This document shows, in pieces, positions 11,370-30,471 of a stretch of 33,887 nucleotides of DNA; position 1 is the first letter of the stretch; each line of letters starts with the position of its first letter. Under the pieces are notes generated by a model. That model was given only the letters and a program-made list of their open reading frames with translations. It had not been told where the DNA came from and did not search any database. Origin of the DNA: an uncultured Solibacteraceae bacterium (GTDB lineage: Bacteria > Acidobacteriota > Holophagae > Holophagales > Holophagaceae); assembly GCA_964627685.1 (NCBI GenBank), contig CAZVKM010000002.1:1-33887 (forward strand), read 5' to 3'. The translations under genes were made by a program, and so were the position numbers.

Positions 11370-14300
11370 CTATCGTTCCGGGAAGTTCACCGCGGGCAGG
11401 TTGGCCTGGGTGGGGGTCCAGTCTGCCAGGGGATCGCCCCGGTCGGGCAGCACGAAGCGCAGCCCGCTGGCCGTGACGGTCTCCTGGAAGCGGTGGAGGT
11501 CGGGGCGGCCGAGGAAGGCCTGGGACTGGGATTCCGACACCCGCGACCACACCTGCTGGAAGGCGGGGAAGGCGTCCTGGAGCCGGGACTGGGCGCCGAG
11601 GCGCTCGCCGCGTCGCAGGAGGATCCGGGCACTTTCCGTGGCGGCCTCCATGAGGTCCGAGGGGAACTGGAGGCTGCGGGCCAGGGCCAGGGCCTCGCCC
11701 CAGGCCCCCAGGGCCTCCTGGTCCACGGGGTCCGAGGCGGGGGCGCAGGCCAGCAGGAGGCCGTGGGCCTTCCGCCACTCCAGGTCGAGCCACCGGCTTC
11801 CGGCCCCGTCCACGGGGCCCTTCAGGGTCTCGAGCAGGCTCCAGGTGGTTTCGGAGGCGGGTCGGCCGGCCTCCAGGCCGTCCCGGGCATCGGCCTGGAC
11901 GAGGCGCAACTGGGCCAGCCGATGGCGCCACACGAGCCCGGCCGCATCGAAGATCTGCGCCGCTTGCCGGAACAGCCGCGCGGCATCCCGCCAGGACCCG
12001 CCGAAGCCGGCCACCTCGGCCTGGAGGAAGGCCTGGTCCCCCTGCTCCAGGGGGGAGAGGAGGGCCCGCTGACCCCCGAGCGCCTTGAGCTGGTGGTGCT
12101 CGGCGCCCACGCGATCGCCAAGGGCCGCCACCGTGCGGGCCCGCCACATGCGCGCGAGGGTGGCGGCGGCCTCCTCGCCGGCGCGTTGGAAGCGCTCCAC
12201 CGCCCGGTCCAGGTGGGACTGGGCCGGGGCCAGGTGATGCTGCAGGCTCTTCACCATCCCGAGGTGGAGGTGGGCCTGGGCCTGGAGCAGCGGATCACCG
12301 TGCAGGCGGGCGGCCTGGAGGGATTCCTGGAGCAGGCGGAGGGCCTGCTCGGTCTCCCCCTGCGCCACCCGCAGGGTGGACAGCACCAGCTCCACCTGCA
12401 CGAGGGCCCGCACCTGCTGCCCGCTCTCCGCCATCCGGAGCGCGCCCTCCAGGAGGCTGGAGGCCCGCTGGAGCTGGCTCTGGTTGCCGAGGGCCCGCCC
12501 CAGCTCGAGGGTGAGATCCACCTGGTCGGCGGTGAGCGCCTTGGCCCCCTGCCCCTGGAGCAGGGCCAGGCCCTCCTCCAGCGCCTTGATGCCCTTGGGC
12601 AGGTGCCCCTGCATGAGGTAGAGGCGGGCCAGCGCGAGGCGGATGCGCGGGTGCTCGGCATGCTGCGGGGCGCCCCGCAGCACGTCCGCCGCGGCCATCA
12701 CCGCGTCCCGGGCCTCGGGCAGGTGCCGCCGCCTCAGCTCCAGCTGGGCCCGCTTCCGCAGGAGGCGGGCCTGGAAGGGCGGGGGTGGGGAAGGCAGCTC
12801 CGCGAGGGCCTGATCGGCCCGCGTGAGCGCCTCCAGGGCTTGGCCGAGGGGGGAGGCCGGCGTGGCCTCCCCACCGAAGAGCCCCCCGCCGCTGTGGTGG
12901 GCCCAGGCATCGGCGAGGTGTTCCAGGAGGCGGGCCCTGTCCATGGCCGAAGGGTGCAGCTGGAGGGCCTGATCCACGACCCGCTTGACCTCCGTGGGGC
13001 TGCCGACCCCCTCGCGCTCGAGGGTCTGCAGCACGCCGGCCAAGGCGCTCTGCTCGTCCGCCGCGAGGCTCTGGAGGGCCACGCTGATGGGGCCCCGATC
13101 CCCGGAGCCCTTGAGGGCCCCCACGAGGGCCCGGGCGAGCCGCTTGAGCTCCGGTTGGGGGGTGTGGGCGAGCACCAGCTCGCGCCAGCGGGGATCCGGG
13201 ATCTGGGCCTCGATGCCCTGGGTGAGCACGAGCTTCGAGCTCAGCGCGGCCTGGAGGATGTCCTCCATGGGGTCGCCGGCCAGGCCCAGGGCCCGGCCGA
13301 GCACATACACCCGGCGGGCCGGGCCCGCCCGGGCCCGCAGGCGCACCCGGGCCTGGGTGGGGGGGGAGAGGCGGTTGAGGCGGCCCACGAAGACGGGCTT
13401 CATCAGGTCCGTGCCCGCCTGCAGGTTTGGTCTTCGTCCCGGCGCCAGCACCCAGCGGCCATGGTCCTCCAGGAGGTCCCCCGCCTGCTGGGCCAGCTCG
13501 AGGAGGCCGAGCATCAGGCCGGGATTGCCGAGGGAGACGCGGAACAGCTCCTGGAGGAGGTCCTCCGGAAGCCCATGGCCCCCGAGCAGGTCCTCGAGCA
13601 CCCGGCGCATGTCCTCATCCTCGAGGCGGTTCAGCACCACCAGGGCCGCGTGGGGCTCCTGCTTGATCTGGGCCACCATGGGCTTGAGGCCGGAACCCTG
13701 GGCCCCGGAGGGCAGGGACAGGAGCCAGGGGAGGGTGGAGCGGTGGACGAGCTCCCGCACCAGCGCCACCACCTCGGGGCGGCTCCGGTCCAACCCGGAG
13801 AGGTGGATGAGCCGGGGGTGGTGGGAGGCTGCGAAATCAAGGGCTTCGAGGGCGCCCTGGAGCTCCTCGGGGTCCAGGTCCTCCGTGGTGGCCTTGCGCC
13901 CTCCGGTGAGGAAGGCAAAGGCCGGCAGCCGCCGGGCGATCATCCGGGCCACGGCGGGCTGGCGGGCGTAGAGGTCGGCCTCGAGGCCGTGGAGCGCCTC
14001 CTCCAGCACCCGGCCCAGCAGGTGGGCCGGCCCCTCCTCATGCCCGAGGGGCAGGCGGTGGACCCACAGCCCCTCGCTCTCCGCGACCGCGCAGGCCCAG
14101 GCGGCGAGCTGCTCACGGCCGAGGCCCTCCTCCGCCATGAGGAGGATCACCCGCTCCATGGGGGCGGGGGCCGTGAGGCCGAGCATGAGGGACTTCAGGT
14201 AGGTCAGCTCCTGGCTGCGTCCACGGATGGCGCGGCCCATGGGGTCGGAGAGCGCACGGGGCGATTCCCAGGGCAGGCCCTCGGTCTCCCCGGGGCCGGG

Positions 14301-14792
14301 ATCCCCCACGGAGAGCAGCGCCTTCAAGGGGGCCAGGGAACCGGGATCCTCGCCCAGCGCCCGGGGGAGGGTGATGATCCCCCGCCTCAGGCCGATCACT
14401 TCCGGGTGGAGGAAGCGCGCCTGGTTGTCGGTGGCCAGCAGGCCTTCGAGGTGGCGCTGGAACGCCTGACGCTGGACCGCGTTCCAGCGCTCCCAGCTGC
14501 GGGCCAGGGGCGTGCCCGAGAGGGCCTGGATGCTCCAGGCATGGTCCTCGTCGAACCCGAAGTGGGCCTCTTCCGGATCGAGGGGAGTCGCATCCTGGAA
14601 GCGGCCCAGGAAGACCTCCTTGAGGTGGTCCAGGCTCCGATCCTCCAGGCGCGGGGTCCACAGCTGGAGGAGGAAGCGGACCCCATCGGATTCCCGCCGC
14701 ATGAGGTGGAAGGTGCTGCCCCCTTCCCGGGCCTCCCCCAGGTCCTGAAGCCAGGTCAGCCGATGGGCGCCGAATGTGCGGATCAGGTCCAT
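11370..14792 (-). CDS. Large (1140 aa) cytoplasmic scaffold/regulatory protein: AAA_16/STAND-like central region with degenerate Walker A, long TPR-like C-terminal region
   Basis: High GC3 and a varied, Leu/Ala/Glu-rich helical-repeat composition. The segment RGRSQELTYLKSLMLGL....VILLMAEEGLGREQLAAW aligns with the GR..EL..L....vvl..GEaGIGKSrL pattern of AAA_16 proteins, but the P-loop Lys-Ser is replaced (GLGRE). No GxxxxGK[ST] occurs anywhere in the protein. The antisense 1124-aa ORF is Gly/Pro-rich junk. Confidence 0.8.
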   Translation of the reverse strand: MDLIRTFGAHRLTWLQDLGEAREGGSTFHLMRRESDGVRFLLQLWTPRLEDRSLDHLKEVFLGRFQDATPLDPEEAHFGFDEDHAWSIQALSGTPLARSWERWNAVQRQAFQRHLEGLLATDNQARFLHPEVIGLRRGIITLPRALGEDPGSLAPLKALLSVGDPGPGETEGLPWESPRALSDPMGRAIRGRSQELTYLKSLMLGLTAPAPMERVILLMAEEGLGREQLAAWACAVAESEGLWVHRLPLGHEEGPAHLLGRVLEEALHGLEADLYARQPAVARMIARRLPAFAFLTGGRKATTEDLDPEELQGALEALDFAASHHPRLIHLSGLDRSRPEVVALVRELVHRSTLPWLLSLPSGAQGSGLKPMVAQIKQEPHAALVVLNRLEDEDMRRVLEDLLGGHGLPEDLLQELFRVSLGNPGLMLGLLELAQQAGDLLEDHGRWVLAPGRRPNLQAGTDLMKPVFVGRLNRLSPPTQARVRLRARAGPARRVYVLGRALGLAGDPMEDILQAALSSKLVLTQGIEAQIPDPRWRELVLAHTPQPELKRLARALVGALKGSGDRGPISVALQSLAADEQSALAGVLQTLEREGVGSPTEVKRVVDQALQLHPSAMDRARLLEHLADAWAHHSGGGLFGGEATPASPLGQALEALTRADQALAELPSPPPPFQARLLRKRAQLELRRRHLPEARDAVMAAADVLRGAPQHAEHPRIRLALARLYLMQGHLPKGIKALEEGLALLQGQGAKALTADQVDLTLELGRALGNQSQLQRASSLLEGALRMAESGQQVRALVQVELVLSTLRVAQGETEQALRLLQESLQAARLHGDPLLQAQAHLHLGMVKSLQHHLAPAQSHLDRAVERFQRAGEEAAATLARMWRARTVAALGDRVGAEHHQLKALGGQRALLSPLEQGDQAFLQAEVAGFGGSWRDAARLFRQAAQIFDAAGLVWRHRLAQLRLVQADARDGLEAGRPASETTWSLLETLKGPVDGAGSRWLDLEWRKAHGLLLACAPASDPVDQEALGAWGEALALARSLQFPSDLMEAATESARILLRRGERLGAQSRLQDAFPAFQQVWSRVSESQSQAFLGRPDLHRFQETVTASGLRFVLPDRGDPLADWTPTQANLPAVNFPER

Positions 14793-14946
14793 GGCCAGAA
14801 CCGGACAGGGGGGGCGTTGGGGGACATGGGGGGCAGTCTACCGCGGAGGGGTTGGAAGGGTGTTTGAAATTGCCGAGGAACCCTTTCGCGGATTGAGCAA
14901 AATCGCAGCCGGCCAAGGTTTGCCGTCGAGATTTCAGTTTGACCCC

Positions 14947-14965
14947 TGTGAGGACGATCGTCACA
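14947..14965. promoter_or_regulatory. Imperfect palindrome TGTGA-N9-TCACA containing the perfect 10-bp palindrome GACGATCGTC, in the divergent ccoN promoter region
   Basis: Read directly in the AT-richer 250-bp spacer between divergent genes (14793-15055). GACGAT recurs at 14982-14987. The spacing does not fit canonical CRP (N6) or FNR (TTGAT-N4-ATCAA) sites. Confidence 0.2.
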
Positions 14966-15055
14966 ATCTTTCAGTTGATCGAGACGATGTGATCCGCTTC
15001 ACGCGACGGCCCGCCTGTCGCGTCACGGCCCGCTTCCCCGGTCTTGGAGATGCTC

Positions 15056-16459
15056 ATGGACGCTCAAACCAGCATGGCCAACGTCGATTCGAACCCCTGG
15101 GCCTGGTTCGACAAGGAGCACAGTGCCTCGACCCGCTTCATGGTGAGCGGCGCGATCTGGGCCCTGGTCGGCACCTTCTTCGGCCTCTTCGCCGCCACCG
15201 AGTACTGGGCTCCCGACCTCGTCCGCATCCTGCCGCAGCTCCAGTTCGGCCGCATCCGCCCCACCCACATCAACGCCGTGGCCTTCGGCTTCATCTCCAT
15301 GAGCACTGTGGGTGCGATCTTCTACGTGATCCCCGAGCTCTGCCGCACCAAGCTCTACAGCGAGCGCCTCGCGAACGTCCTGATGATCGCCTGGAACGCC
15401 GTGCTCATCGCCGGGGTGTTCTGCCTCACCAACGGCATCACCGAGGGCCGCGAGTACGCCGAGCTGCCTTGGTTCCTCGACATCCCGATGTTCATCGCCC
15501 TGATGACCTACATCGTGATCGTGTGGGGCACGGTGCTGAACCGCCAGGAGAAGCAGCTCTACGTGACCACCTGGTACGTGGCCGGCACCACCCTCTGGTT
15601 CCCCGTGGTCTACCTCATCGGCAACCGCGTGTTCTTCCAGATGGACGGCATCGCCGACTCCATCGCCCAGTGGTTCTACGGCCACAACATCCTGGGCCTC
15701 TGGTTCACCACCAACGGCATCGGCCTGACCTACTACTTCCTGCCCAAGATCACCAAGAACCCCCTCTACAGCCACCTGCTGAGCATCGTGGGCTTCTCCA
15801 CCATCGCGATGTTCTACACCCCCACCGGCACGCACCATCTCCTGCAGATGCCCGTGCCCGAATGGCTCAAGGCCGTGGCCGTGATCAGCTCCGTGATGCT
15901 GCTCGTCCCCGTGATGAGCGTGCTCGTGAACTTCTTCCTGACCATGAAGGGCAAGTGGGGCATGATCGCCACCAACCTGCCCCTGCGGTTCTTCCTGACC
16001 GCGATGTGGTTCTACCTCCTGACCTGCTTCACGGGCCCCTTCCAGGCCACCCGCTGGATCAACTGGTACCTCCACTACACCCACTGGGTGGTGGGCCACG
16101 CCCACTTCGCCCTGCTGGGCACCTTCGGCTTCGTGGCCTGGGGCGCCCTCTACTACTGCGTGCCCCGTGTGACCGGCAAGCAGTGGTACAGCCGCCGACT
16201 GGCCAACGCCCACTACTGGCTGAGCCTCTCGGGCACGGTGATCATGATGATCGCCCTGACCGTGGCCGGCCTCGCCCAGGCCGCCGCCTGGGAGGAGGGC
16301 ACCGTGGTCTACCGCACCGTGATCCAGGTGGCCCCCTTCATGGGCCTGCGCGTCTTCAGCGGTCTCCTGATCGTCGTGGGCCAGGTGCTGCTGGTCTACA
16401 ACATCCTGATGACCGTGTTCGGCTCTGATGCGGCCGACACGATGGAACCCCAGGACTGA
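15056..16459 (+). CDS. ccoN: cbb3-type cytochrome c oxidase subunit I
   Basis: 12-TM haem-copper oxidase pattern: FGRIRPTHINAVAFGF, WFYGHNILGLWFT, YTPTGTHHLLQ and HYTHWVVGHAHFALLGTFGF. GGAG lies 6 nt upstream of the ATG at 15056; the ATG at 15050 or TTG at 15044 are possible. Confidence 0.92.
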   Translation: MDAQTSMANVDSNPWAWFDKEHSASTRFMVSGAIWALVGTFFGLFAATEYWAPDLVRILPQLQFGRIRPTHINAVAFGFISMSTVGAIFYVIPELCRTKLYSERLANVLMIAWNAVLIAGVFCLTNGITEGREYAELPWFLDIPMFIALMTYIVIVWGTVLNRQEKQLYVTTWYVAGTTLWFPVVYLIGNRVFFQMDGIADSIAQWFYGHNILGLWFTTNGIGLTYYFLPKITKNPLYSHLLSIVGFSTIAMFYTPTGTHHLLQMPVPEWLKAVAVISSVMLLVPVMSVLVNFFLTMKGKWGMIATNLPLRFFLTAMWFYLLTCFTGPFQATRWINWYLHYTHWVVGHAHFALLGTFGFVAWGALYYCVPRVTGKQWYSRRLANAHYWLSLSGTVIMMIALTVAGLAQAAAWEEGTVVYRTVIQVAPFMGLRVFSGLLIVVGQVLLVYNILMTVFGSDAADTMEPQD

Positions 16460-16479
16460 GCCGAGCCGAGGAATTGACG

Positions 16480-17796
16480 ATGACCACCCAACGCGCCAAC
16501 TACCTCTACCCCTCCATCGGGATGGGCCTGATCCTCAGCGCCATCATCTTCGTGGTGGTGCTCGTGCCCCGCTGGACCTTCAAGCCGGCCCAGCCCAAGG
16601 ACCTCCGCAACTACACCGCCCAGGAGCAGCGCGGCCGCACGGTGTACCGCCGTGAGGGCTGCTGGTACTGCCACTCCATGGCGAGCCGCCCCCAGGACTG
16701 GGACCACGGCGTGAAGAGCAAGGCCAGCGACTACTTCTACGACCACGATGGCCACCTGCTCGGCTCCGAGCGGAGCGGCCCCGATCTGGCCAACATCGGC
16801 GGCAAGTTCCCCGACGAGTACCACGATCAGCACCACCGGGATCCCCGCAGCCTCAAGCCCGGCAGCATCATGCCCCGCTACGACTACCTCTCCAAGCAGG
16901 ACATGACCGACGTGGTGGCCTTCCTCCAGGGGAACGGCCCCAACGGCACCCGGGCCCTTGACGTCCACTCGGGCGAGATGAAGTGGGCCTTCTTCACCAA
17001 GACCTGGAACCCCGACCTGCCGACCATCCGCACCGTCCCCCGCAGCGAGGTCCAGCCCGGCGAGAAGATCGTGGGCGAGATCAACAAGGATTTCGTGACG
17101 GTGGAAGGGAAGCCCAACGGCTGGGAGTGGGTGGCCAACTGGAAGCACGGCGTGCGTGAGCGCGAGGAGATCGCCTTTAAGAACTACGAGGCGCACCCCG
17201 AGACCCCCTACAAGTACACCGCCGAGATCGAGGAGTTCATGTACGGGACCTCCCACGAGGCCCAGAACGCCAAGACCCCCCTCAACGCCCTGGCCACCAA
17301 GGCCTTCGCCAACGAGGAGGAGCTGCACCACGCCCGCACCGAGAACCCCGACGTGGCCCCCTGGACGGAAGTCTCCTTCAAGGAGCCCGAAGTCCTCCCG
17401 ACGGACGTGGTCGGCCTCAAGGCCCTCGAAGCCCGCCGCGTGGTCGCGAACCAGGGTCGCGGCATCTACAACCAGAAGTGCTCCGCCTGCCACGGCCTCG
17501 ATGGCAACGGCCACGGCTGGGCCAGCGCCAGCATGACCAAGCGGGCCGCCAACTTCTGGGAGGATAAGTTCCAGAACTACAAGACCGACACCTGGTACTG
17601 GCGCATCAGCCGCGGCGTCCCCGCCACGCAGATGCCCCGCTGGGAGCTGACCCTGGCCCCCGACCAGCGCCTCTACCTCGCGGCCTTCCTGAAGTACATC
17701 TCTCAGAACAAGGGCCTGGGCAAGCTGGCCGGCTCCGATGCCCCGAACGCCGGTGCGCCGCCCAGCGCCGCCGCCCCTCAGCCTTCCGCGAAGTGA
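16480..17796 (+). CDS. ccoO: CcoO (FixO) monohaem subunit fused through a ~190-aa linker to a C-terminal monohaem cytochrome c domain
   Basis: N-terminal TM helix plus GRTVYRREGCWYCHSM...SERSGPDLANIGGKF...HHRDPRSLKPGSIMPRY is the FixO signature. The C-terminal IYNQKCSACHGLDGNGHG...YWRISRGVPATQMPRW is a class I cytochrome c domain (CcoP-like). Two CxxCH motifs in total. Confidence 0.88.
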   Translation: MTTQRANYLYPSIGMGLILSAIIFVVVLVPRWTFKPAQPKDLRNYTAQEQRGRTVYRREGCWYCHSMASRPQDWDHGVKSKASDYFYDHDGHLLGSERSGPDLANIGGKFPDEYHDQHHRDPRSLKPGSIMPRYDYLSKQDMTDVVAFLQGNGPNGTRALDVHSGEMKWAFFTKTWNPDLPTIRTVPRSEVQPGEKIVGEINKDFVTVEGKPNGWEWVANWKHGVREREEIAFKNYEAHPETPYKYTAEIEEFMYGTSHEAQNAKTPLNALATKAFANEEELHHARTENPDVAPWTEVSFKEPEVLPTDVVGLKALEARRVVANQGRGIYNQKCSACHGLDGNGHGWASASMTKRAANFWEDKFQNYKTDTWYWRISRGVPATQMPRWELTLAPDQRLYLAAFLKYISQNKGLGKLAGSDAPNAGAPPSAAAPQPSAK

Positions 17797-17803
17797 GGAT
17801 CCC

Positions 17804-17959
17804 ATGAGCCAGGACCCCATGCACCACGATGAAGAGCCGATGGAGGAGGTCTCCGGGACCCGCATCGGCCACGGCAAGGCGCCCTTCGCCCTCGTCCTCC
17901 TGTACCTGATCATCCTCGTCTGGGCCGTCCTCTCCTGGATCCGCCCCAGCGGCACCTAG
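17804..17959 (+). CDS. Small single-TM protein (51 aa), possible accessory oxidase subunit
   Basis: MSQDPMHHDEEPMEEVSGTRIGHGKAPFALVLLYLIILVWAVLSWIRPSGT. Starts 7 nt after ccoO and ends 17 nt before the next gene. One hydrophobic helix. No recognisable FixQ motif. Confidence 0.5.
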   Translation: MSQDPMHHDEEPMEEVSGTRIGHGKAPFALVLLYLIILVWAVLSWIRPSGT

Positions 17960-17976
17960 TCGGAAGCGAGGCCTCG

Positions 17977-18978
17977 ATGAAGAAGATCCATTCGAACCTC
18001 TCCCTCGCCGTGCTGGCCCTCGGCCTCCTCGGCCTGGGCTGCGCCAGTGAAGGTCTGGGGGGCAAGGCCCCCGCCGGCGAGCTGATCCAGGCCGTGAACG
18101 CCGTCCCCGGCGGCCTCGAAGGCGTGGAACCCGACGCCCCCTATCCCCTCGGCCTCCCCTCGGCCGTAAAGGGCCGTCCGCTCTATCAGGCGAACTGCGC
18201 CTCCTGCCATGGCACCTGGTACACCGCCCAGGAGCGCCTCGATCTGGCGGCGGGCAAGCCCGAGGTGATCGAGCGCCTCAAGGCCGAGCACCGCGAACCC
18301 GGCAACGCCCTGGAGAAGGCCAAGGTTGGTCCCGACTTCGCCGGCCGTGACTGGCGCTTCCAGCGCACCCCCGCCGAGCTGTTCAACCTCGTCGCCTACG
18401 GCAGCGATCGCGTCGTGGCCAAGGGCAACACCTTCGTCCCGGCCATGGCCAAGGACGGCAAGGCCCTCGGCAAGCTCCACCCGGGCCCCGACGGGAAGCC
18501 CGGCATCGGCTGGATCGACCACCTCAAGGACAACCGTGGCAACGTGATGGTGGCGGCCAACGATCCCATGCCCGTGTGGCACAGCATCTACTACGTGTGG
18601 TCCCGTTCCATCGCTGGCGTGGCGCCGGATCAGTACAAGAAGGCCTGGGATGTCTACGGCCAGAACTGCAACGTGTGCCACGGCGTGATGGGCAAGGGCG
18701 ACGGTCCCCTGTCTCGCACGATCACCCCCGCGCCCTTCAACTTCCACAACCGCAAGGCCATGGCGGAACAGACGGATGAGTTCCTCTACTGGCGCATCTC
18801 GGAGGGGGGCCAGTTCAAGTCCATCCCCGAGAGCATCCAGAACACCATGAGCCGTTCCGCCCTGGGACTGTACGTCCACCAGTGGTCCGCCATGCCCGCC
18901 TGGAAGGGCGTGCTCACGCCCGAGAAGCGCTGGCTGGCCGTCGACGGTGTGCGCATGAAGTCCTACGAGCAGGACTAG
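17977..18978 (+). CDS. Dihaem c-type cytochrome lipoprotein
   Basis: Lipobox LGLLGLGC. Two CxxCH motifs (CASCHG, CNVCHG). The second domain ends with a Met-ligand block (WSAMPAW). Confidence 0.85.
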   Translation: MKKIHSNLSLAVLALGLLGLGCASEGLGGKAPAGELIQAVNAVPGGLEGVEPDAPYPLGLPSAVKGRPLYQANCASCHGTWYTAQERLDLAAGKPEVIERLKAEHREPGNALEKAKVGPDFAGRDWRFQRTPAELFNLVAYGSDRVVAKGNTFVPAMAKDGKALGKLHPGPDGKPGIGWIDHLKDNRGNVMVAANDPMPVWHSIYYVWSRSIAGVAPDQYKKAWDVYGQNCNVCHGVMGKGDGPLSRTITPAPFNFHNRKAMAEQTDEFLYWRISEGGQFKSIPESIQNTMSRSALGLYVHQWSAMPAWKGVLTPEKRWLAVDGVRMKSYEQD

Positions 18979-18989
18979 GGGAGACGACG

Positions 18990-19646
18990 ATGCAAGAGAA
19001 CACCCGCCGGACCCTCCTCAAGACCCTCACGGCCCTGCCCATCATCGGCGGCGCCATCGAGCTGCAGCACGTGATCCTTCGCTACTTCAAGCCCACCATG
19101 GCGGGCGGCCTGAAGAGCATGGTGGCCGAGCCCGACAGCGCCGGCAGCTCCGAGCAGGAGATCGCCGATCTCGACGAACTGAAGAACCCCTGGGACTTCA
19201 AGGAGTTCATCTACGTCCGCAAGTCGGTGGAGTACAGCAGCCGCAAGTGGCAGGGCGCCAAGATCCCGGCCTTCATCGTGCGCCTGCCCGAGGAGTACAT
19301 CACCGACAAGAAGGACCCCAAGGGCGCCTACGTCGTGGTGCAGCGCATCTGCCCGCACCTCGGGTGCACCTTCAACTTCATCAGCAACTCGGAAGAGCTC
19401 GCCGGCGGCTACAACTACAAGGCCCCGGCGCCCTTCCACCCCTTTTTCGCGTGCCCGTGCCACCTTTCCGTGTACGATCCGACGCGTCCCCAGCCCATCG
19501 CGGGGACCGTGGCGGGCAAGCCCTTCGACAAGCTGCCGGGCAAGGTGGTCTCCGGACCCGCGCCCCGTCCTCCCCGCACCATGTCCTTCGACATCCGTGG
19601 CACGAAGATCGTGATCACGGATACCGAAGGCGGCGGTGTGGGTTAG
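18990..19646 (+). CDS. Rieske [2Fe-2S] iron-sulfur subunit with Tat signal
   Basis: Twin-arginine motif TRRTLLK followed by a hydrophobic helix. Rieske boxes CPHLGC and CPCHLS. GGGGAGA RBS upstream of the ATG at 18990; the track's 36-aa N-terminal extension was rejected. Confidence 0.88.
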   Translation: MQENTRRTLLKTLTALPIIGGAIELQHVILRYFKPTMAGGLKSMVAEPDSAGSSEQEIADLDELKNPWDFKEFIYVRKSVEYSSRKWQGAKIPAFIVRLPEEYITDKKDPKGAYVVVQRICPHLGCTFNFISNSEELAGGYNYKAPAPFHPFFACPCHLSVYDPTRPQPIAGTVAGKPFDKLPGKVVSGPAPRPPRTMSFDIRGTKIVITDTEGGGVG

Positions 19647-19662
19647 AGGCAGGAGGAGACCG

Positions 19663-21273
19663 ATGCTGACCAAGATCTGGAACGTCCTGCAGGGCCTTCT
19701 TCCGCGCCGTGGCGTGGCCGGCCACGTCTACCACGGCGTCCTCAACGCCCCCGTGAACTTCATCGAGTGGTTCAAGGAGCGCTGGGACAAGATGGACCTC
19801 TTCGACGAGACCCACGTCGAGAAGGCCAAGACCAACCCCTTCTATGCCATCGGCGGCATGTGGTACTGGGTGTGGATGCTCGTGATCGCCAGCGGCGTGC
19901 TGCTGATGATCTACTACGTGCCCGACACCAGCCAGGCCTTCGTGTCCATCGAGCGCATGCAGGCCAACTGGAAGTGGGGTGAGATCCCCATCGGCGCCAT
20001 CATCCGCGGCATGCACAAGTACGGTGCGGACGCCTTCATCATCCTCGCCACCATCCGCGTGTACCGCATCTGGTTCAGCGGCGGGTACAAGGGCGGCCAT
20101 GAGCTCAGCTTCATCGTGGCCCTCCTGCTCCTCATCATCGGCATGTACTCCGGCCTCACCGGCTACCTGCTGATCTGGAACCAGCGCGCCCTGTGGGCGA
20201 CCAAGGTGATGGCGACCTTCCCCACCTACCTGGACAAGAACCCCAGCTGGATACCCGGCGGCGACTTCATCAACTGGACGAACCAGGGCAAGACCACCGC
20301 GCAGATCCTGCTCGGCGGCACCTCCATCGGTCCGGCCACGGTGACGCGGTTCTACGCCTTCCACTTCATGCTGTCGTTCCTCGTGATGATCTTCTTCGAG
20401 CTCCGCGTCTACCATCGCGGCTTCAAGCGGATGAACATCAGCCGCTGGTCGAAGTTCATCCTCTTCATGATCCTCGCGGGCATGGCCATCCTCATCCCGG
20501 CCGCCCAGGGCAGCCCGGCCAACCCCGAGGTCACCCCGAACCCCATCCTCAGCGACTGGTACTTCCTCGCGATGTACCACATGCTCAAGCTCCAGGATCC
20601 CTACCTGGCCACGATCCTCACCGTGGGCGTGCCCGCCCTGGTGCTGCTGGCCCTTTTCCTGGATCGCCGGCCGGAGACGGCCTGGAACGAGCGCCAGATC
20701 GCCAACTGGATCGGCATCGGCGGCCTCATCTACTTCATCGTCTTCAGCTTCCTGATCATCAACAGCATCGCGGACCTCCACCGGGACGCCCCCCTCTGGT
20801 ACTACTCCATGGGCCTCTTCCTGCTCATCGGGTACTTCAAGGACTGGGGCTACGTGATGAAGCGGGACGGGAAGCAGTGGTGGGAGACCTTCCACCTCTT
20901 CTTCGTCGCCTTCCTGGTCGTCTCCATGAGCGCCAACACGCTCTTCCACTACTTCGGCGACATCCGCGAGTGGAACGTGCTGGCCAAGGCCGAGCTGCCC
21001 AAGGTCCTCGCCGCGCACCCCGGGTTCACCCAGGATCAGGCCCTCGACTTCCTCGAGAAGACCAAGCCGGGCCTGAACCTCTGGATGACCCCGGAAGCGA
21101 CCGTGGCCAAGGGCATGCCCAAGGGCCTGGAGCTCTGGAAGATCCACGTCCTCGGGTGGCTCTTCATCCCCCTCGCGGGCACCGTCATCGGCCTGAAGCG
21201 CTGGGCTGACAAGCGGGACGCCCTCCTCGCCGCCGCGGCCGCCAAGGCCAAGGCCAAGACCGCGGGAGCCTAG
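19663..21273 (+). CDS. Cytochrome b (fused b6 + subunit IV type, extended C-terminus); Arg replaces His at the second haem-ligand position of helix B and at +14 in helix D
   Basis: AGGAGGAG RBS. RGMHKYGADAFIILATIRVYRIWFSGGYKGGHELSF aligns residue-for-residue with the b6 helix B block R.IHRW.A......ILHVFRVY..GGFKKPRELTW, but position +14 is Arg. Helix D reads TRFYAFHFMLSFLVMIFFELRVYH (His0, Arg+14, His+17). The Qo-loop PEWY equivalent is SDWYF. About 10 TM helices. Confidence 0.85.
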   Translation: MLTKIWNVLQGLLPRRGVAGHVYHGVLNAPVNFIEWFKERWDKMDLFDETHVEKAKTNPFYAIGGMWYWVWMLVIASGVLLMIYYVPDTSQAFVSIERMQANWKWGEIPIGAIIRGMHKYGADAFIILATIRVYRIWFSGGYKGGHELSFIVALLLLIIGMYSGLTGYLLIWNQRALWATKVMATFPTYLDKNPSWIPGGDFINWTNQGKTTAQILLGGTSIGPATVTRFYAFHFMLSFLVMIFFELRVYHRGFKRMNISRWSKFILFMILAGMAILIPAAQGSPANPEVTPNPILSDWYFLAMYHMLKLQDPYLATILTVGVPALVLLALFLDRRPETAWNERQIANWIGIGGLIYFIVFSFLIINSIADLHRDAPLWYYSMGLFLLIGYFKDWGYVMKRDGKQWWETFHLFFVAFLVVSMSANTLFHYFGDIREWNVLAKAELPKVLAAHPGFTQDQALDFLEKTKPGLNLWMTPEATVAKGMPKGLELWKIHVLGWLFIPLAGTVIGLKRWADKRDALLAAAAAKAKAKTAGA

Positions 21274-21276
21274 GCC

Positions 21277-21567
21277 ATGTATCACCAGGGGCGCATCAAG
21301 GCCAGCAAGTGGGTGGGGATCCTCCTCGCCGTCGTGCTGCTGAGCCAGTCCATCGCCCACTGGAAGGCCTTCTTCGCCAACGCCGGATTCATGAGCTACG
21401 TCGTGCTGATCGCCACCCTCACCCTCTTCCTCCTCCTGATGGTGGGGCTGATGGTGGTGGTCTACGCCGAAGAGAAGGTCCGGGGCAACGTGCAGCATCC
21501 CCGCCCCTGGTTCGAGCGCCTGGCGGACCGCTTCTTCCTGATTCATTCCGATTCATCGAGGGGTTGA
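21277..21567 (+). CDS. Small membrane protein (96 aa, 2 TM)
   Basis: Starts 3 nt after cytochrome b. Hydrophobic helices WVGILLAVVLLSQSI and YVVLIATLTLFLLLMVGLMVVVY. No family recognised. Confidence 0.55.
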   Translation: MYHQGRIKASKWVGILLAVVLLSQSIAHWKAFFANAGFMSYVVLIATLTLFLLLMVGLMVVVYAEEKVRGNVQHPRPWFERLADRFFLIHSDSSRG

Positions 21568-21569
21568 CC

Positions 21570-21935
21570 GTGAAAAAACGGAACATCTTCGGCACCATCT
21601 TCCTGGTCTTCGGCCTTGGGATCTTCTTCGTGCTCGGGGCGAGCAGCATCAGCGCCGAACTCCACGACGTGCTCCATGAGGCGCCCATGGGCGGCAAGCT
21701 CCGTCAGGAGAAGGCTCCCAAGCCCGTGAGCAAGGCCATCGACGCGGTGCTCCCCGCCACCGTGGCGGAGCTTCCGCACATCAAGGCCGTGAACCCCCAG
21801 AGCCAGAGCACCAGCGACAATCCCTTCCAGCAGTTCAACGTCGTCCGCTGGATGGGCTGGGCCTTCGTGATCGCCGCCCTCGCCGAAGTGGGCGTGGCCT
21901 ACTGGACCCGCACCAAGGTCCAGGTGCAGGAGTAG
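21570..21935 (+). CDS. Small membrane protein (121 aa) with N- and C-terminal TM helices
   Basis: GTG at 21570, 2 nt after the previous stop, with a GAGGGG RBS. (M)KKRNIFGTIFLVFGLGIFFVLGASS ... WMGWAFVIAALAEVGVAYW. The track ORF 21309-21935 is the same frame with a spurious extension. Confidence 0.5.
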   Translation: MKKRNIFGTIFLVFGLGIFFVLGASSISAELHDVLHEAPMGGKLRQEKAPKPVSKAIDAVLPATVAELPHIKAVNPQSQSTSDNPFQQFNVVRWMGWAFVIAALAEVGVAYWTRTKVQVQE

Positions 21936-21943
21936 GAGGCACC

Positions 21944-23218
21944 ATGTACAAGAAATTCCTCCAGCTCACCAAGAACCTCACGGTCTCCCTCGAGAAGGGC
22001 GTGAACTTCCTGACCACCCAGGAGCACAACCCCCTGTACTTCCACGGGGCCCTGCCGCTCTACACCTTCTGGTTCCTGATCTTCTCCGGCATCCTGCTGT
22101 GGATGTACTACATCCCCACCCTGGAGCGGGCCTGGTCCAGCGTGAACTACATCACCAGCCTGCCCGTGTTCCTGAAGGACGCCTCCGGCCAGCTGGTCCT
22201 CGACAGGAATGGCGCGCCGGTCATCGACGCCGTCAACGTCGCCACGGGCATCCCCTACGGGGCCGTGGTCCGCGGCATCCACCGCTGGGGCGCCGCCGGC
22301 ATGATGATCACCACGCTGCTGCACATGTTCCGCGTGTACTTCACGGACCGCCACCGCGCCTGGCGCTGGCTGCCCTGGGTCTCCGGCGTGTTCCTGCTCC
22401 TCTTCCTGCTCTTCGTGGGCGTGACCGGCTACCTGCTAGTGTGGGACGCCCGGGCCTACCGCATGGTCGTGGAGACCCAGGAGTTCCTGCGGGCCGTGCC
22501 CCTCGCCGGGGCCTGGATGGCGGACTTCCTCGTGGGTGGCAGCGGCATCAGCGACTACACGATCACCCGCTTCTTCTTCTTCCACATCGGCGGGGCCGCC
22601 TTCCTCTTCGTGCTGATCTGGGTGCACTTCATCCGCCTGCATGAGCCCGTGGTCACCCCGAGCCGCGCCAGCAACTTCCTCACCCTCGGCTTCATCCTGG
22701 TGGCCGCCGGCGCCCTGCCCGCCATCAACATCACCGAGCAGCTCATCCAGCAGTTCCCCGGCCTGGCCTCGGACCGCGCCTACATCGCCTCCGACGCCCC
22801 CGCCCAGATCGGCGTGCTGGTGGGCACGATGCGCTACGACGCCTGGTACATGTTCCCCTACTACCTCATCAACAAGGCGGGCGTGAACGGCGCCTGGGCG
22901 ATCCTCTCCGTCTCGACCCTGCTGCTCATGGTGGCCCCCTTCTACCCCAAGGACCGCCGCGACAACCTGGCCTCCGTGGTGGAAGCCAAGTGCACGGGCT
23001 GCACCTTCTGCTCCCTGGACTGCCCCTTCGAGGCCATCACGATGCAGGAGCGGGCCCCCGGGTCCAAGTTCAAGCTCATCGCCGTGGTGCAGGAGGCCCG
23101 CTGCTCCGAGTGCGGCATCTGCGTCGGGGCCTGCCCCTTCCAGGCCATCGAGCTCCCGAACACGCATTCCAAGACCATCGAAGCTGAAGTGCTCGACCTT
23201 CTGAAGACGGGGGCCTAA
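21944..23218 (+). CDS. Cytochrome b (canonical four His ligands, 6 TM) fused to a C-terminal 2x[4Fe-4S] ferredoxin domain
   Basis: Helix B is RGIHRWGAAGMMITTLLHMFRVYF (His0/His+14). Helix D is RFFFFHIGGAAFLFVLIWVHF (His0/His+14). The ef-loop-like segment is RYDAWYMFPYY. The C-terminus has CTGCTFCSLDCP and CSECGICVGACP (two CxxCxxCxxxCP motifs, about 22991-23137). By helix count the ferredoxin domain is cytoplasmic. Confidence 0.85.
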   Translation: MYKKFLQLTKNLTVSLEKGVNFLTTQEHNPLYFHGALPLYTFWFLIFSGILLWMYYIPTLERAWSSVNYITSLPVFLKDASGQLVLDRNGAPVIDAVNVATGIPYGAVVRGIHRWGAAGMMITTLLHMFRVYFTDRHRAWRWLPWVSGVFLLLFLLFVGVTGYLLVWDARAYRMVVETQEFLRAVPLAGAWMADFLVGGSGISDYTITRFFFFHIGGAAFLFVLIWVHFIRLHEPVVTPSRASNFLTLGFILVAAGALPAINITEQLIQQFPGLASDRAYIASDAPAQIGVLVGTMRYDAWYMFPYYLINKAGVNGAWAILSVSTLLLMVAPFYPKDRRDNLASVVEAKCTGCTFCSLDCPFEAITMQERAPGSKFKLIAVVQEARCSECGICVGACPFQAIELPNTHSKTIEAEVLDLLKTGA

Positions 23219-23623
23219 ATGAGCGAATCCACTGAGAAGAAGCCCCGCGTCATCGTCGGATTCGTCTGCGAGCGGTCCATCCCCATCCAGGAGATGATCG
23301 ATCAGCAGAAGGCCCTCACCGACGATCCCGAGACGAAGATCGTGATCCTGCCCTGCTCGGGCATGGTGAAGCCCACCCAGATGGAGCTGGCCCTCTCCAA
23401 GGGCGCCGACGCCACCTTCGTGTGCGGCTGCGCCATCGGCGACTGCCATTACCGCACGGGCAACCTGATGATCCGCGAGCGGCTCGAAGGTGAGCGCAAT
23501 CCCAAGCTCCGCAAGACCACCGACAAGCGCCGGGTGGGCATGTTCTTCTACACCATGAAGGACCGCCGCCTGTTCCTCGAAGCCCTGGAGTCCTTCAAGG
23601 CCTCCGTGGCCGAGATCCAGTAA
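23219..23623 (+). CDS. MvhD / FlpD-like iron-sulfur protein (methyl-viologen-reducing hydrogenase delta-subunit family)
   Basis: The ATG directly abuts the preceding TAA. PRVIVGFVCERS...IVILPCSGMVKPTQMELALSKGADATFVCGCAIGDCHYRTGN matches the FlpD/MvhD pattern (C.g.v.......Al..GADGV.v.GC..GdCHy..GN). No signal peptide. Confidence 0.8.
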   Translation: MSESTEKKPRVIVGFVCERSIPIQEMIDQQKALTDDPETKIVILPCSGMVKPTQMELALSKGADATFVCGCAIGDCHYRTGNLMIRERLEGERNPKLRKTTDKRRVGMFFYTMKDRRLFLEALESFKASVAEIQ

Positions 23624-23633
23624 GGAGACGACG

Positions 23634-23768
23634 ATGGCCGCGCCCAGCAAGAACGCCGAGCCCAAGGTCAGCAGCTACATGGTCATGCTGCGGTACCTGG
23701 CCTTCTACCTCTTCTTCTTCGGAGTCCTCTACCTCGTGGGCCTCTTCGGCGAAGTGGCCGAGAGCTAG
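23634..23768 (+). CDS. Tiny single-TM protein (44 aa); below the ORF-track size cut-off
   Basis: My translation: MAAPSKNAEPKVSSYMVMLRYLAFYLFFFGVLYLVGLFGEVAES. AAGGAGA RBS 5 nt upstream. Starts 10 nt after the MvhD-like stop. Confidence 0.5.
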   Translation: MAAPSKNAEPKVSSYMVMLRYLAFYLFFFGVLYLVGLFGEVAES

Positions 23769-23784
23769 GCCAAAGGAGACCGTC

Positions 23785-23961
23785 ATGACCGAGACCCTGG
23801 ATCACCAGACGCCCGAGCAGAACGAGGACGCCCCCATCACCAACCGGGAGATCCTCAAGGAGAACTGGGTGCTCCGCAACGCCCTGATCTTCTTCATCCT
23901 CATGCTGGCGGTGCCCACCATCCTGGCTTGGAAGCTGGGCTGGTTCCTCATCGCGAACTAG
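23785..23961 (+). CDS. Tiny single-TM protein (58 aa); below the ORF-track size cut-off
   Basis: My translation: MTETLDHQTPEQNEDAPITNREILKENWVLRNALIFFILMLAVPTILAWKLGWFLIAN. AAAGGAGA RBS 5 nt upstream. Confidence 0.5.
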   Translation: MTETLDHQTPEQNEDAPITNREILKENWVLRNALIFFILMLAVPTILAWKLGWFLIAN

Positions 23962-23965
23962 GCCC

Positions 23966-23988
23966 CGGGAGCCCCCCGAGGGCTCCCG
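23966..23988 (+). terminator. 8-bp GC hairpin in the 56-nt gap before ccoS (possible attenuator or partial terminator)
   Basis: CGGGAGCC ccccgag GGCTCCCG. No U-tract. It may only be mRNA structure. Confidence 0.25.
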
Positions 23989-24017
23989 CCCCCCTTCTCC
24001 CTTCCCCTGGAGGTCCC

Positions 24018-24215
24018 ATGGATCCCATGCAGACCAAGCTCATGGTCATCACCTTCACGGTGGTGGGCCTGGCCTTCGCCGCCGGCTTCGTGATGGTGGC
24101 CGTGTGGGCCATCCGCGCGGGCCAGTTCAAGGATGTGGAGGGGGTGAAGTACCGGATGCTCGAGGACTTCAACGCCAAGGGCGCCCCGAAGGATGGCGGG
24201 GAGTTCAAGGGCTGA
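24018..24215 (+). CDS. ccoS: cbb3 oxidase maturation protein CcoS/FixS
   Basis: 65 aa with one TM helix followed by WAIRAGQFKDVEGVKYRMLED, matching the CcoS signature W....GQ[FY]DD.eg...R.L.D. GGAGG RBS. The track ORF 23928-24215 is the same frame extended. Confidence 0.8.
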   Translation: MDPMQTKLMVITFTVVGLAFAAGFVMVAVWAIRAGQFKDVEGVKYRMLEDFNAKGAPKDGGEFKG

Positions 24216-24237
24216 GGCCCACGCTCATCCGACCGCC

Positions 24238-24259
24238 GCGGCGCCCTTCGGGGCGCCGC
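24238..24259. terminator. Bidirectional terminator hairpin between ccoS (+) and maf (-)
   Basis: GCGGCGCCC ttcg GGGCGCCGC (9-bp stem, TTCG tetraloop). Confidence 0.65.
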
Positions 24260-24271
24260 ATGCGTTCTGGA

Positions 24272-24898
24272 TCACCTTCCCTTGGGCAGCCCCACCCAGT
24301 CGCTGAGGAGGTCCAGCTCGAACAGCCAGGTGGCCAGCCGCTCCACGGGAAGGCCCATCACCGTGGCGAAGCTCCCCTCCACCCGCTCGATGAAGAGGGC
24401 GCCGATGCCCTGGATGGCGTAGCTGCCCGCCTTGTCCATGGGCTCCCCGGTGGCGACGTACCATCGGGCCTGGGCCTCGGTGAAGGGGCGGAAGAAAACC
24501 TGGGCGGTGTCCACCAGGCTGTGGACCGTCCGGTTCCTGCGGAGGGCCATGCCGGTGTGCACCTGGTGGGCCCGACCCTGGAGGAGCATGAGCATGCGCA
24601 CGGCGTCCTCCACATCCACCGGCTTGTTGAGGGTGTGATGGTCCACGGCCACCGTGGTGTCGGCCGCCAGCACCCAGCGCCCGGGGTTGCGGTTGGAGAC
24701 GACCTCCGCCTTGGTGCGGGCCAGGCGCAGCACGAGGTTCTCGGGATCCTCATCCATGATGGGGGTCTCATCCACGTCGGGGGTCTGCACCTCGAAGGGG
24801 AGGTTCAGGGCCTCCATCCACTGGCGCCGCCGCGGGCTGCCGCTGGCCAGCACCAGGGGGCCGATGATGCGGGTGGTGTCGTGGATCGCTTCGGTCAT
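24272..24898 (-). CDS. maf: Maf-like nucleoside triphosphate pyrophosphatase
   Basis: LVLASGSPRRRQWMEALNLPFEV..PDVDE, KAGSYAIQG and GLPV are classic Maf blocks. The start overlaps the upstream stop (ATGA). Confidence 0.9.
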   Translation of the reverse strand: MTEAIHDTTRIIGPLVLASGSPRRRQWMEALNLPFEVQTPDVDETPIMDEDPENLVLRLARTKAEVVSNRNPGRWVLAADTTVAVDHHTLNKPVDVEDAVRMLMLLQGRAHQVHTGMALRRNRTVHSLVDTAQVFFRPFTEAQARWYVATGEPMDKAGSYAIQGIGALFIERVEGSFATVMGLPVERLATWLFELDLLSDWVGLPKGR

Positions 24899-30434: not shown

Positions 30435-30471
30435 AGCGTTTGTTCCGAGGGGTTGGATCCTGAACGCGGCT

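Follow-up and report, generated by a model that had tools for sequence, protein, structure and literature searches.

To our knowledge, every structurally characterised Rieske/cytochrome b complex is a symmetric dimer whose low-potential electrons end on a quinone at the Qi site. Here we describe a gene cluster that appears to break this rule, in that one of its two cytochromes b would have given up the inner haem and the other would have gained a cytoplasmic Fe-S exit or entry. The cluster occupies positions 15056-24215 of a 33,887-nt stretch of DNA (hereafter the window; forward strand, positions 1 to 33,887 of contig CAZVKM010000002.1, assembly GCA_964627685.1) from an uncultured Solibacteraceae bacterium placed by GTDB in the Holophagaceae (Acidobacteriota). 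Its 13 consecutive plus-strand genes, with ccoN first and ccoS last, encode among others a cbb3-type (C-family) haem-copper oxidase, a Rieske protein, two unlike cytochromes b (b-1 and b-2, the second fused to a ferredoxin domain) and an MvhD/FlpD-like [2Fe-2S] protein. We put at roughly 0.4 the probability of the full chain proposed below, namely that the 13 genes specify one hard-wired quinol-to-O2 machine, a cbb3-type oxidase joined to an atypical Rieske/cytochrome b complex in which an asymmetric b-1/b-2 pair carries out O2-driven quinol bifurcation.

Among the closest described systems, the bc1-cbb3 supercomplexes (Rhodobacter capsulatus, 6xkw; Pseudomonas aeruginosa, 8smr; PMC7876108, PMC10556555) connect a Rieske/cytochrome b module through c haems to a cbb3 oxidase in one physical assembly, as is proposed here. 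Those supercomplexes, however, draw complexes III and IV from separate operons; their cytochrome b forms a symmetric homodimer, each monomer holding two haems and a Qi site, and they contain CcoP but lack any Fe-S/MvhD branch. The window, in contrast, holds a single putative operon with two unlike cytochromes b, one of them predicted to bind a single haem, and with a CcoO-cytochrome c fusion and a dihaem cytochrome c in place of CcoP and c1. The obligate bcc-aa3 supercomplex of actinobacteria (6hwh, 6adq) resembles the proposed assembly in that a dihaem cytochrome c bridges the Rieske protein and the oxidase directly, so that a soluble carrier is unneeded. Its oxidase, however, is of the A family, its QcrB is symmetric with two haems, and a cytoplasmic Fe-S branch is lacking.

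Closer still in gene content is the 'complex III/IV fusion' operon with a C-family oxidase reported from aerobic Melainabacteria (PMC6349859; bioRxiv 10.1101/531145, both citing Soo et al. 2017). This is very probably the same gene cluster as that of the window; the Melainabacteria/Obscuribacterales loci recovered in our survey (L023-L031 and L039) have an identical gene order, including b-2-Fer4 and MvhD. The accessible portions of these texts mention petB/petC-like genes beside the C-family oxidase and 'two cytochrome bc', and in those portions Fer4 domains, MvhD, haem loss in b-1 and a spread to Acidobacteriota and other phyla do not figure. A second related group is the 'PDWF-FeS clade', in which a cytochrome b is fused to a 4Fe-4S domain and MvhD and to which no function was assigned (Kao & Hunte 2014, PMC4122944). 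Cytochrome b-2 shares with this clade the cytochrome b part, a Qo-like motif, the 4Fe-4S domain and the association with MvhD, and it is homologous to such triple fusions (P0080-P0089, L063 and L077; E ~1e-35). The fusions, however, are all one chain with no Rieske or b-1 partner described, whereas the window encodes MvhD in a separate, abutting gene, the b-2 motif reads D-A-W-Y and b-2 is always paired with the Rieske protein and b-1; b-2 is treated here as a probable sister subgroup of the PDWF-FeS fusions rather than a member. Finally, Dibrova et al. 2017 (PMC5600118) mentioned a clade G' whose members lie in 'large conserved operons ... of an unknown function', together with a subfamily H that comprises large cytochromes b; our guess is that these may be b-1 and the fusions.

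The original prediction, which was made from the window's sequence, had judged the arrangement novel. For the individual parts this did not hold, as both the III/IV fusion operon of Melainabacteria and the cytochrome b-FeS-MvhD fusions are published. As to the whole, no description of this complex, of the haem loss in b-1 or of the b-1/b-2 pairing was found in the searchable literature or the PDB, and the PDB entries matched by the b-2 family profile were either cytochrome b chains or Fe-S proteins, never the two combined. The components and the juxtaposition of complexes III and IV are already known, and what is new is the loss of the inner haem in b-1 and the complementarity of b-1 and b-2.

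Predicted Cofactors of the Two Cytochromes b

Cytochrome b-1 (19663-21273, 536 aa) is a long cytochrome b made of a b6 part, a subunit IV part and an extension (Pfam Cytochrome_B and Cytochrom_B_C). Its Qo motif, S-D-W-Y-F-L, is invariant across 56 orthologues, in which the only invariant histidines are H118 and H234, matching the b6 residues H86 and H187 that hold the outer (p-side) haem. The position of b6 His100, a ligand of the inner (n-side) haem, is taken by Arg, rarely Lys, in every one of 19 diverse orthologues that were aligned to b6, and that of b6 His202 is variable (R/Y/H/F) and not conserved. Where the inner haem would sit, helix B instead has an invariant Arg and helix D an invariant Glu, which may close the inner-haem pocket. 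With ligands for the outer haem only, b-1 lacks the haem that forms the Qi site, and a normal Q cycle would not be possible.

Cytochrome b-2 (21944-23218, 424 aa) consists of cytochrome b helices A-F followed by a 2x[4Fe-4S] ferredoxin domain (Pfam Cytochrome_B and a Fer4 dicluster). Without exception, 85 aligned sequences keep four histidines (H113, H127, H214 and H228) and eight cysteines. A profile built from the b-2 family finds b6 at 4e-46 and aligns with mitochondrial (bc1) cytochrome b to about residue 320, through helices E and F. A single-chain AlphaFold2 model (pLDDT 86, pTM 0.81) likewise shows helices A-F and then the ferredoxin domain; the structures that it matches best are bc1 cytochrome b chains. 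With six helices that start from a cytoplasmic N-terminus, the Fer4 domain is placed in the cytoplasm, beside the inner haem. The Qo region of b-2 carries a relaxed PEWY-like motif, D-x-[aromatic]-[FY] (D-A-W-Y in the window), with an invariant Asp. Between helices A and B, the p-side loop of b-2 has about 30 extra residues (72-100, encoded at 22157-22243) in the window and its closest Holophagaceae relatives; this stretch is shorter in other Holophagaceae, absent in the other phyla aligned, and modelled at lower confidence as short beta strands.

Of the two proteins, it is therefore b-2 that has the four histidines and two haem sites of a bc1/b6f cytochrome b, whereas b-1 does not. Since b-1 has lost the inner-haem ligands while b-2 keeps all four histidines, the predicted cofactor sets of the two proteins are complementary and not redundant. 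The Cys that binds haem cn is absent from both in alignments to b6 and cytochrome b.

The start codon of the MvhD/FlpD-like gene (23219-23623, 134 aa) directly abuts the stop codon of b-2. Its product is a soluble protein with neither signal peptide nor transmembrane (TM) helix, scores well above the cut-off for Pfam FlpD (1.6e-19, 70.5 bits against 22.3) and matches the MvhD chains 5odc_D and 8rvv_F in the PDB; C17, C46, C71 and C76 are invariant in 82 orthologues. It shares the fold family and the four-Cys [2Fe-2S] site of MvhD in the MvhAGD-HdrABC and Hdr/Flx/Bam complexes (5odc, 7bkb, 8rvv), and the tandem of Fer4 and MvhD mirrors the C-terminus of HdrA2. Known MvhD proteins, however, connect the HdrA flavin with a hydrogenase or a dehydrogenase, whereas the apparent partner in the window is a membrane cytochrome b, with no HdrA in the window. 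Neither HdrA nor Mvh genes were found among the coding-like open reading frames (ORFs) of the window or in three inspected related loci (L082-L084), and none of the 13 cluster proteins has an NAD or FAD domain.

Recurrence of the Gene Order Across Phyla

Relatives of b-2 were collected by scanning one genome per GTDB species, which yielded 541 loci, and the best 80 were examined. Synteny was scored by tblastn with the 13 window proteins; denominators are loci with enough flanking DNA, and taxon names are the labels in the records, among which mis-binned metagenome-assembled genomes (MAGs) are possible. MAGs with the label Holophagaceae or Acidobacteria supply the relatives closest to b-2 (66-94% identity), and within the Holophagaceae the genes flanking the cluster are syntenic as well. 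The recurring order is ccoN, ccoO-c, (a small TM protein), dihaem c, Rieske, b-1, small ORFs, b-2-Fer4 and MvhD. Rieske and b-1 genes accompany b-2 in 17/17 Holophagaceae-labelled, 9/9 Melainabacteria/Obscuribacterales-labelled and 12/12 Deinococcales-labelled loci, ccoN in 14/14, 7/7 and 9/9, and MvhD in 22/22, 8/8 and 13/13; the MvhD gene lies 3' of b-2 wherever the contig reaches far enough. The full order was also found in one Symbiobacterium MAG and one Fimbriimonadaceae MAG (Armatimonadota-labelled). In the metagenome contigs L082-L084 b-2 is only 33-36% identical to that of the window, yet independent gene calls give the same layout of 12-13 genes. With more than 100 independent loci in several phyla sharing this gene order, a chance origin of the cluster is excluded.

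The linkage was also approached from b-1. A search of metagenomes with the b-1 alignment (A2) gave 441 loci, of which 80 were kept. Among those with at least 3.5 kb of downstream DNA, b-2-Fer4 and MvhD follow b-1 in 43/44 and the b-2 haem domain in 44/44; the Rieske gene is present in 32/32 loci, and ccoN in 31 of the 32 with enough DNA upstream. The original prediction had allowed that the b-2 and MvhD genes might belong to a known complex that never occurs with Rieske or oxidase genes; they prove to be linked to Rieske and b-1 in nearly every informative locus and usually to the cbb3 oxidase.

The sole informative metagenome locus in which b-2 ends after the haem domain is L101 (9940-10626), where tblastn finds ccoN, Rieske and b-1 and neither the Fer4 part nor MvhD; this could reflect a natural truncation, or else an artefact of assembly or a frameshift. 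With b-2 residues 235-424 as query, phmmer found 253 matches at E <= 1e-10 among 50%-identity cluster representatives, and the best 150 of these are mostly proteins of 360-720 aa, matched at about residues 230-390.

This near-obligate pairing is hard to reconcile with an explanation in which two separate enzymes merely share an operon. The Rieske protein and b-1 would then form a quinol:cytochrome c reductase that works without a Q cycle and feeds cbb3, while b-2-Fer4 and MvhD would form a NarI-like dihaem anchor in which electrons either run from quinol to an Fe-S partner in the cytoplasm or come from that partner. Anchors of the dihaem b type are commonly combined with Fe-S subunits in the cytoplasm (NarGHI, HdrDE), the cytochrome b-Fer4-MvhD module is found at work without Rieske and b-1 in many lineages, and the invariant Asp in the PEWY-like loop of b-2 could mark a quinol site of its own. 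Two independent enzymes would nevertheless not be expected to stay together in 43 of 44 loci, nor would the small subunit genes between b-1 and b-2 be expected to be conserved along with them. In addition, the second quinol electron would find no outlet in a Qo-type cytochrome b with only an outer haem, and bc1 complexes in which the inner haem has been knocked out are known to be crippled. We therefore regard two separate enzymes as improbable.

The Rieske Protein and a Proposed Electron Path

The gene at 18990-19646 encodes a Rieske [2Fe-2S] protein of 218 aa, predicted from its RR motif to be exported by the Tat system, with the ligand boxes CPHLGC...CPCHLSVY. It scores slightly under the Pfam cut-off (18.9 against 20.3 bits). 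The CPHLGC...CPCH ligands and the disulfide Cys are invariant in 53 orthologues, 49 of which have the RR motif, and after the second ligand box a Ser (53/53) and a Tyr (52/53) are conserved. These two residues raise the redox potential of Rieske proteins, and the window protein thus appears to carry a high-potential signature.

In the mechanism that we favour, the oxidation of quinol would take place at the b-1 Qo site, adjoining the Rieske protein, and the high-potential electron would pass from Rieske through the dihaem cytochrome c and CcoO-c to CcoN and O2. This path had been drawn in the original prediction and agrees with the inventory of the cluster, in which Rieske and the Qo motif are intact and the c haems number four, all of them in mono- and dihaem c proteins. 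Because b-1 offers a Qo site and an outer haem only, and b-2 is the sole co-inherited outlet that is encoded, we assign to b-2 the second electron of quinol. The two outer haems in bc1 dimers are near enough for electron transfer between monomers, and on this ground we propose that a b-1/b-2 heterodimer replaces the usual homodimer. The low-potential electron would then move from the outer haem of b-1 to that of b-2, across the membrane to the b-2 inner haem, and on through the 2x[4Fe-4S] domain and the MvhD [2Fe-2S] centre to a cytoplasmic acceptor encoded outside the cluster. The net process would be O2-driven, quinone-based electron bifurcation, yielding a lower-potential reductant (at the level of NAD(P)H, or ferredoxin-like) and charge moved across the membrane. 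If the reduced carrier were re-oxidised by a pumping enzyme, an extra coupling site would result, which we may speculate to be a gain even for heterotrophs. Outflow to the cytoplasm is favoured because the Qo/Rieske part is strictly conserved, because b-1 has discarded its Qi side and because the Rieske protein keeps both Ser and Tyr.

A similar mechanism has been proposed for the Rieske/b complexes of anammox bacteria that have an NAD(P) oxidoreductase subunit, which would bifurcate quinol electrons to a low-potential acceptor and make NAD(P)H (PMC12954380). The complexes in question (Kuste4569-74 and Kustd1480-85; PMC12954380) resemble the one proposed here in that a cytoplasmic Fe-S wire replaces a clear Qi function and in the high-potential Rieske signature. 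The energetic argument is also the same as that made for them, namely that a high-potential Rieske centre combined with a low-potential quinone would yield a very reducing low-potential branch (PMC12954380). They differ in having a split b6/subunit IV with haem cn, multihaem c proteins, an FAD/NAD(P) subunit and a homodimeric cytochrome b, and nitrite as the proposed sink, whereas the window has unlike b subunits with no haem cn Cys, no flavin subunit, MvhD as the cytoplasmic protein and cbb3 as the sink.

Several points weigh against a bifurcating heterodimer, which is deduced from complementary cofactor loss and gene linkage. An acceptor module, whether a flavin protein, an NAD(P) site or HdrA, was found neither in the cluster nor nearby, the L082-L084 loci included. 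Pushing electrons from haem b to a [4Fe-4S] centre against the membrane potential is energetically demanding, and the carriers of the cluster look like heterotrophs, which would have no evident use for reverse electron flow. The invariant acidic residue in the b-2 motif may indicate that b-2 has a quinone site of its own. Moreover, in the relatives without a Rieske protein, which adjoin CuA-type oxidases or are fused to a cytochrome c, the simple thermodynamic direction would be from the cytoplasm to the outside. Rather unlikely, and offered tentatively, is the broader proposition that the cluster represents an uncharacterised type of complex III, an obligate b-1/b-2-ferredoxin heterodimer with no Qi site that performs bifurcation driven by a directly attached cbb3 oxidase, sends half of the electrons of quinol via an MvhD wire to a low-potential carrier in the cytoplasm, and is widespread in Acidobacteriota, non-photosynthetic Cyanobacteriota and other phyla.

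Other Genomic Contexts and the Direction of Electron Flow

The combination of cytochrome b, Fer4 and MvhD was found in three genomic contexts: with cbb3 and Rieske/b-1/b-2/MvhD as in the window, as Rieske/b-1/b-2/MvhD without ccoN, and as a single-chain cytochrome b-Fer4-FlpD fusion. The second context occurs in some Armatimonadota- and Bacillota-labelled MAGs, in which tblastn detected no ccoN up to 10 kb upstream. In the one such locus with annotated neighbours (L058) the order is Rieske-b-1-small ORF-b-2-MvhD, with no oxidase or copper gene nearby. Since the module occurs there without an oxidase, b-2 and MvhD appear to belong with the Rieske/b module and not with oxidase assembly.

The triple fusions, which have neither Rieske nor b-1, come from Delta- and Gammaproteobacteria-, Nitrospirota- and Rokubacteria-labelled MAGs, and a search for fusion homologues returned nearly 5,000 proteins at E <= 1e-20. 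That cytochrome b, Fer4 and MvhD are fused in one chain elsewhere suggests that they act together. Genes for the fusions adjoin COX2-like, COX1, (haem O synthase) and SCO1 genes, and sometimes hemerythrin and NnrS genes. In L063 (6420-12157), L077 (5937-14151) and L081 (4416-12099), fusions of 511-524 aa come directly after COX2-like, COX1, (UbiA) and SCO1 genes. The gene next to the fusion on its other side encodes a conserved protein of about 170-220 aa, with one TM helix and two conserved Cys, and in L077 hemerythrin and NnrS follow this protein. This protein was considered as a b-1-like cytochrome and rejected, having a single TM helix plus a soluble domain and no similarity to cytochrome b; its earlier clustering with the fusions was an artefact. 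The idea that the triple fusion is 'orf1' of the nitrifier norSY-senC-orf1 (sNOR) cluster was not confirmed and was dropped; the papers examined on that cluster do not say what orf1 is, and the fourth gene of Bacillus sNOR encodes a six-TM protein, not a cytochrome b-FeS protein. In one further protein, P0087 (713 aa), cytochrome b, Fer4 and FlpD are joined by a C-terminal class I cytochrome c, so that a full cofactor chain from cytoplasm to periplasm is predicted within a single polypeptide.

Such relatives bear on the main rival to outflow, in which the same architecture runs in reverse. A cytoplasmic ferredoxin, or a flavoprotein docking on MvhD, would reduce the 2x[4Fe-4S] domain and then the b-2 inner haem. 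From there the electrons would either aid quinone reduction at a single n-side site, comparable to ferredoxin-assisted cyclic flow in b6f, or continue outward to the c haems and cbb3, and low-potential cytoplasmic donors would thus be oxidised directly with O2. Flow in this direction is downhill and favoured by the membrane potential, and in P0087 and in the relatives that stand beside CuA-type haem-copper enzymes (with SCO1, hemerythrin and NnrS) the cytochrome c or oxidase can only accept electrons. A related fusion of cytochrome b, ferredoxin and flavin oxidoreductase has been reported (PMC4122944) and resembles outward export of the NADPH-oxidase type, and one carrier lineage, the Melainabacteria, includes fermentative members (PMC6349859). 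Inward feeding of electrons would leave unexplained, however, why b-1 lost its inner haem alongside an invariant Qo motif and a Rieske partner. The electron on the b-1 outer haem would have to oppose the incoming flow or use a p-side exit that no known cytochrome b has. The high-potential Rieske signature fits bifurcation better, and a donor module is no more encoded nearby than an acceptor is. On balance, reverse flow seems to us a serious possibility that is nonetheless on the unlikely side.

Oxidase, Cytochrome c and Maturation Genes

CcoN (15056-16459, 467 aa) is recognised by Pfam COX1 (5e-85, 286 bits against a cut-off of 34.8). Its best solved relatives are the cbb3 CcoN chains 9g6b (2.6e-81) and 3mk7 (4e-77), whereas NOR and ba3 structures match at merely 1e-9 to 1e-10. 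Its score against the TIGR00780 equivalog (298 bits) is under the cut-off of 583, which points to a divergent member of the cbb3 group. The next gene (16480-17796, 438 aa) encodes CcoO with one N-terminal TM helix and a fused C-terminal class I cytochrome c domain (FixO, 1.4e-30, 106.9 bits against 29.6, residues 21-142; Cytochrom_C, residues 325-406). Its two CxxCH motifs lie at residues 61 (CWYCH) and 334, and it matches the NCBIfam 'bifunctional subunit II/cytochrome c' at 1.6e-33. In the usual position of ccoQ is a 51-aa single-TM protein (17804-17959) of no Pfam family; tblastn detects it, likewise placed, in loci of Holophagaceae, of Melainabacteria and, in part, of those labelled Deinococcales. 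The dihaem cytochrome c (17977-18978; CxxCH at residues 74 and 231) has a signal peptide ending in LGLGC, is possibly a lipoprotein and is the likely relay from Rieske to the oxidase; it has Pfam Cytochrome_CBB3 and Cytochrom_C matches and weak QcrC/CcoP-like matches in NCBIfam. A canonical ccoP was absent, in agreement with the original prediction, TIGR00782 reaching only 21-23 bits against a cut-off of 180. CcoP is not universal within C-family oxidases, and in the cluster it is replaced by the c domain fused to CcoO and the separate dihaem c protein.

At the other end of the cluster, ccoS (FixS; 24018-24215, 65 aa; 4.7e-9, 36.3 bits against 23.1) encodes a cbb3 maturation protein; it is part of the cluster in other phyla too, at different positions. 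Searches for FixG, FixH and a P-type ATPase among the coding-like ORFs of the window found none, and ccoG, ccoH and ccoI are thus missing from the window, as had been claimed. In L082, FixS lies 5' of COX1, and the FlpD gene is followed directly (11918-15467) by a copper-type P1B ATPase (HMA plus E1-E2_ATPase), YtkA and DsbD_2; oxidase maturation genes are there appended to the cluster, unlike in the window.

The missing maturation genes could be taken to mean that b-2-Fer4, MvhD, the two tiny TM proteins that follow and ccoS form a maturation sub-cluster, a CcoG-like reductase for Cu(I) supply or haem handling that stands outside the respiratory path. CcoG, too, is a membrane protein with two [4Fe-4S] clusters, and copper or haem genes do adjoin relatives of the module, as with the ATPase in L082 and the SCO1, haem O synthase and CtaA genes beside triple fusions. 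Nevertheless, the Rieske-b-1-b-2-MvhD set of L058 has no oxidase or copper gene near it, and b-2 has no FixG-type domain, its Pfam matches being generic Fer4 families and Cytochrome_B only. The module also sits between structural genes and is close-packed with them translationally, and a maturation role leaves the haem loss in b-1 unexplained. We consider such a role very unlikely.

Gene Layout, Small Membrane Proteins and Flanking Regions

The 13 same-strand ORFs from ccoN to ccoS were all present as originally described, and matches to Pfam and NCBIfam hidden Markov models bore out their annotations, the Rieske match falling just under its cut-off. Intergenic gaps are, in order, 20, 7, 17, 11, 16, 3, 2, 8, 0, 10, 16 and 56 nt. 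The original prediction had counted twelve gaps of 0-20 nt and one of 56 nt; the range and the single larger gap were right, but with 12 gaps in total the short ones number eleven. A GGAG/AGGAG-type Shine-Dalgarno sequence lies within 15 nt of the start in 12 of the 13 genes, in line with the claim that most have their own. On either side the cluster borders on an unrelated gene of the other strand, for a TPR protein (11370-14792) and maf (24272-24898), and because of this it stands as a discrete unit, in keeping with the single tight cluster first proposed.

Two small two-TM proteins are encoded between b-1 and b-2. The first, tmA (21277-21567, 96 aa), belongs to no Pfam family and has positional homologues across phyla (e.g., L084 9469-9729 and L037 9249-9554), which share a motif at the end of TM2, Y-x-x-[ED]-[KR]-x-x-G-x-[VLI] ... 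[FY]-[ED]-[KR]-[LIM]-L; it is probably a dedicated subunit of the module. The second, tmB (21570-21935, 121 aa, GTG start assumed), has a counterpart at this position in most loci as a second small ORF, poorly conserved in sequence. Between MvhD and ccoS lie two tiny TM proteins, one of 44 aa (23634-23768), conserved in Holophagaceae and weakly matched in a few further loci, and one of 58 aa (23785-23961), conserved within Holophagaceae only.

The window is GC-rich (63-77%). Upstream of the cluster, ORFs at 11370-14792 (minus strand) and 11493-14867 (plus strand) overlap, each of them longer than 1,100 aa. The minus-strand ORF is preferred as the true gene by GC3 statistics and TPR domain matches, and the plus-strand one was rejected as a shadow ORF of the kind typical of high-GC DNA. 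In the 263-nt intergenic region 5' of ccoN, a promoter-like site TTGACC-17-CACAAT (14939-14967, plus strand) is the sole sigma-70-like match in 14500-24800; shuffled sequence averages 0.9, and the evidence for this site is weak. A GTGA-N6-TCAC palindrome (14989-15002), a putative CRP/FNR-family-like box, lies about 55 nt 5' of the ccoN start and recurs at equal offset in the three closest relatives (L002-L004); it is absent from more distant loci, and being conserved only among the closest relatives it says little. A terminator scan inside the cluster found 5 sites against 3.9 expected from shuffles and hence no signal, and searches of the window for tRNA genes and Rfam families found none.

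Downstream, a plus-strand gene at 30453-33359 encodes a 968-aa protein with an N-terminal hemerythrin domain, an NfnA/DHOD-B-like NAD-binding and 2Fe-2S part, and a GltD/NfnB-like part (Fer4_20 and Pyr_redox_2). By its domains it looks like a hemerythrin-tagged oxidoreductase of the Nfn type, possibly a bifurcating one. The gene is syntenic in the closest relatives (L001-L004), about 6 kb 3' of the cluster; to connect it with the cluster's Fe-S branch would be purely speculative.

Implications

In either direction of electron flow, the cofactor complement predicted for b-1 and b-2 changes how the 'complex III/IV' genes of Melainabacteria and Holophagaceae are to be read in evolutionary and ecological work on aerobic respiration. 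If reverse flow is true, fermentative or microaerophilic bacteria would burn cytoplasmic reductant on a high-affinity oxidase. If bifurcation is true, the cluster would provide an O2-driven and possibly tractable counterpart to the long-debated anammox proposal, and electron transfer between the outer haems of two monomers, so far an engineered curiosity in bc1, would become an obligatory physiological step. Should the reduced carrier then be re-oxidised by a proton-pumping enzyme, bifurcation would give these bacteria an added coupling site in microaerobic respiration.

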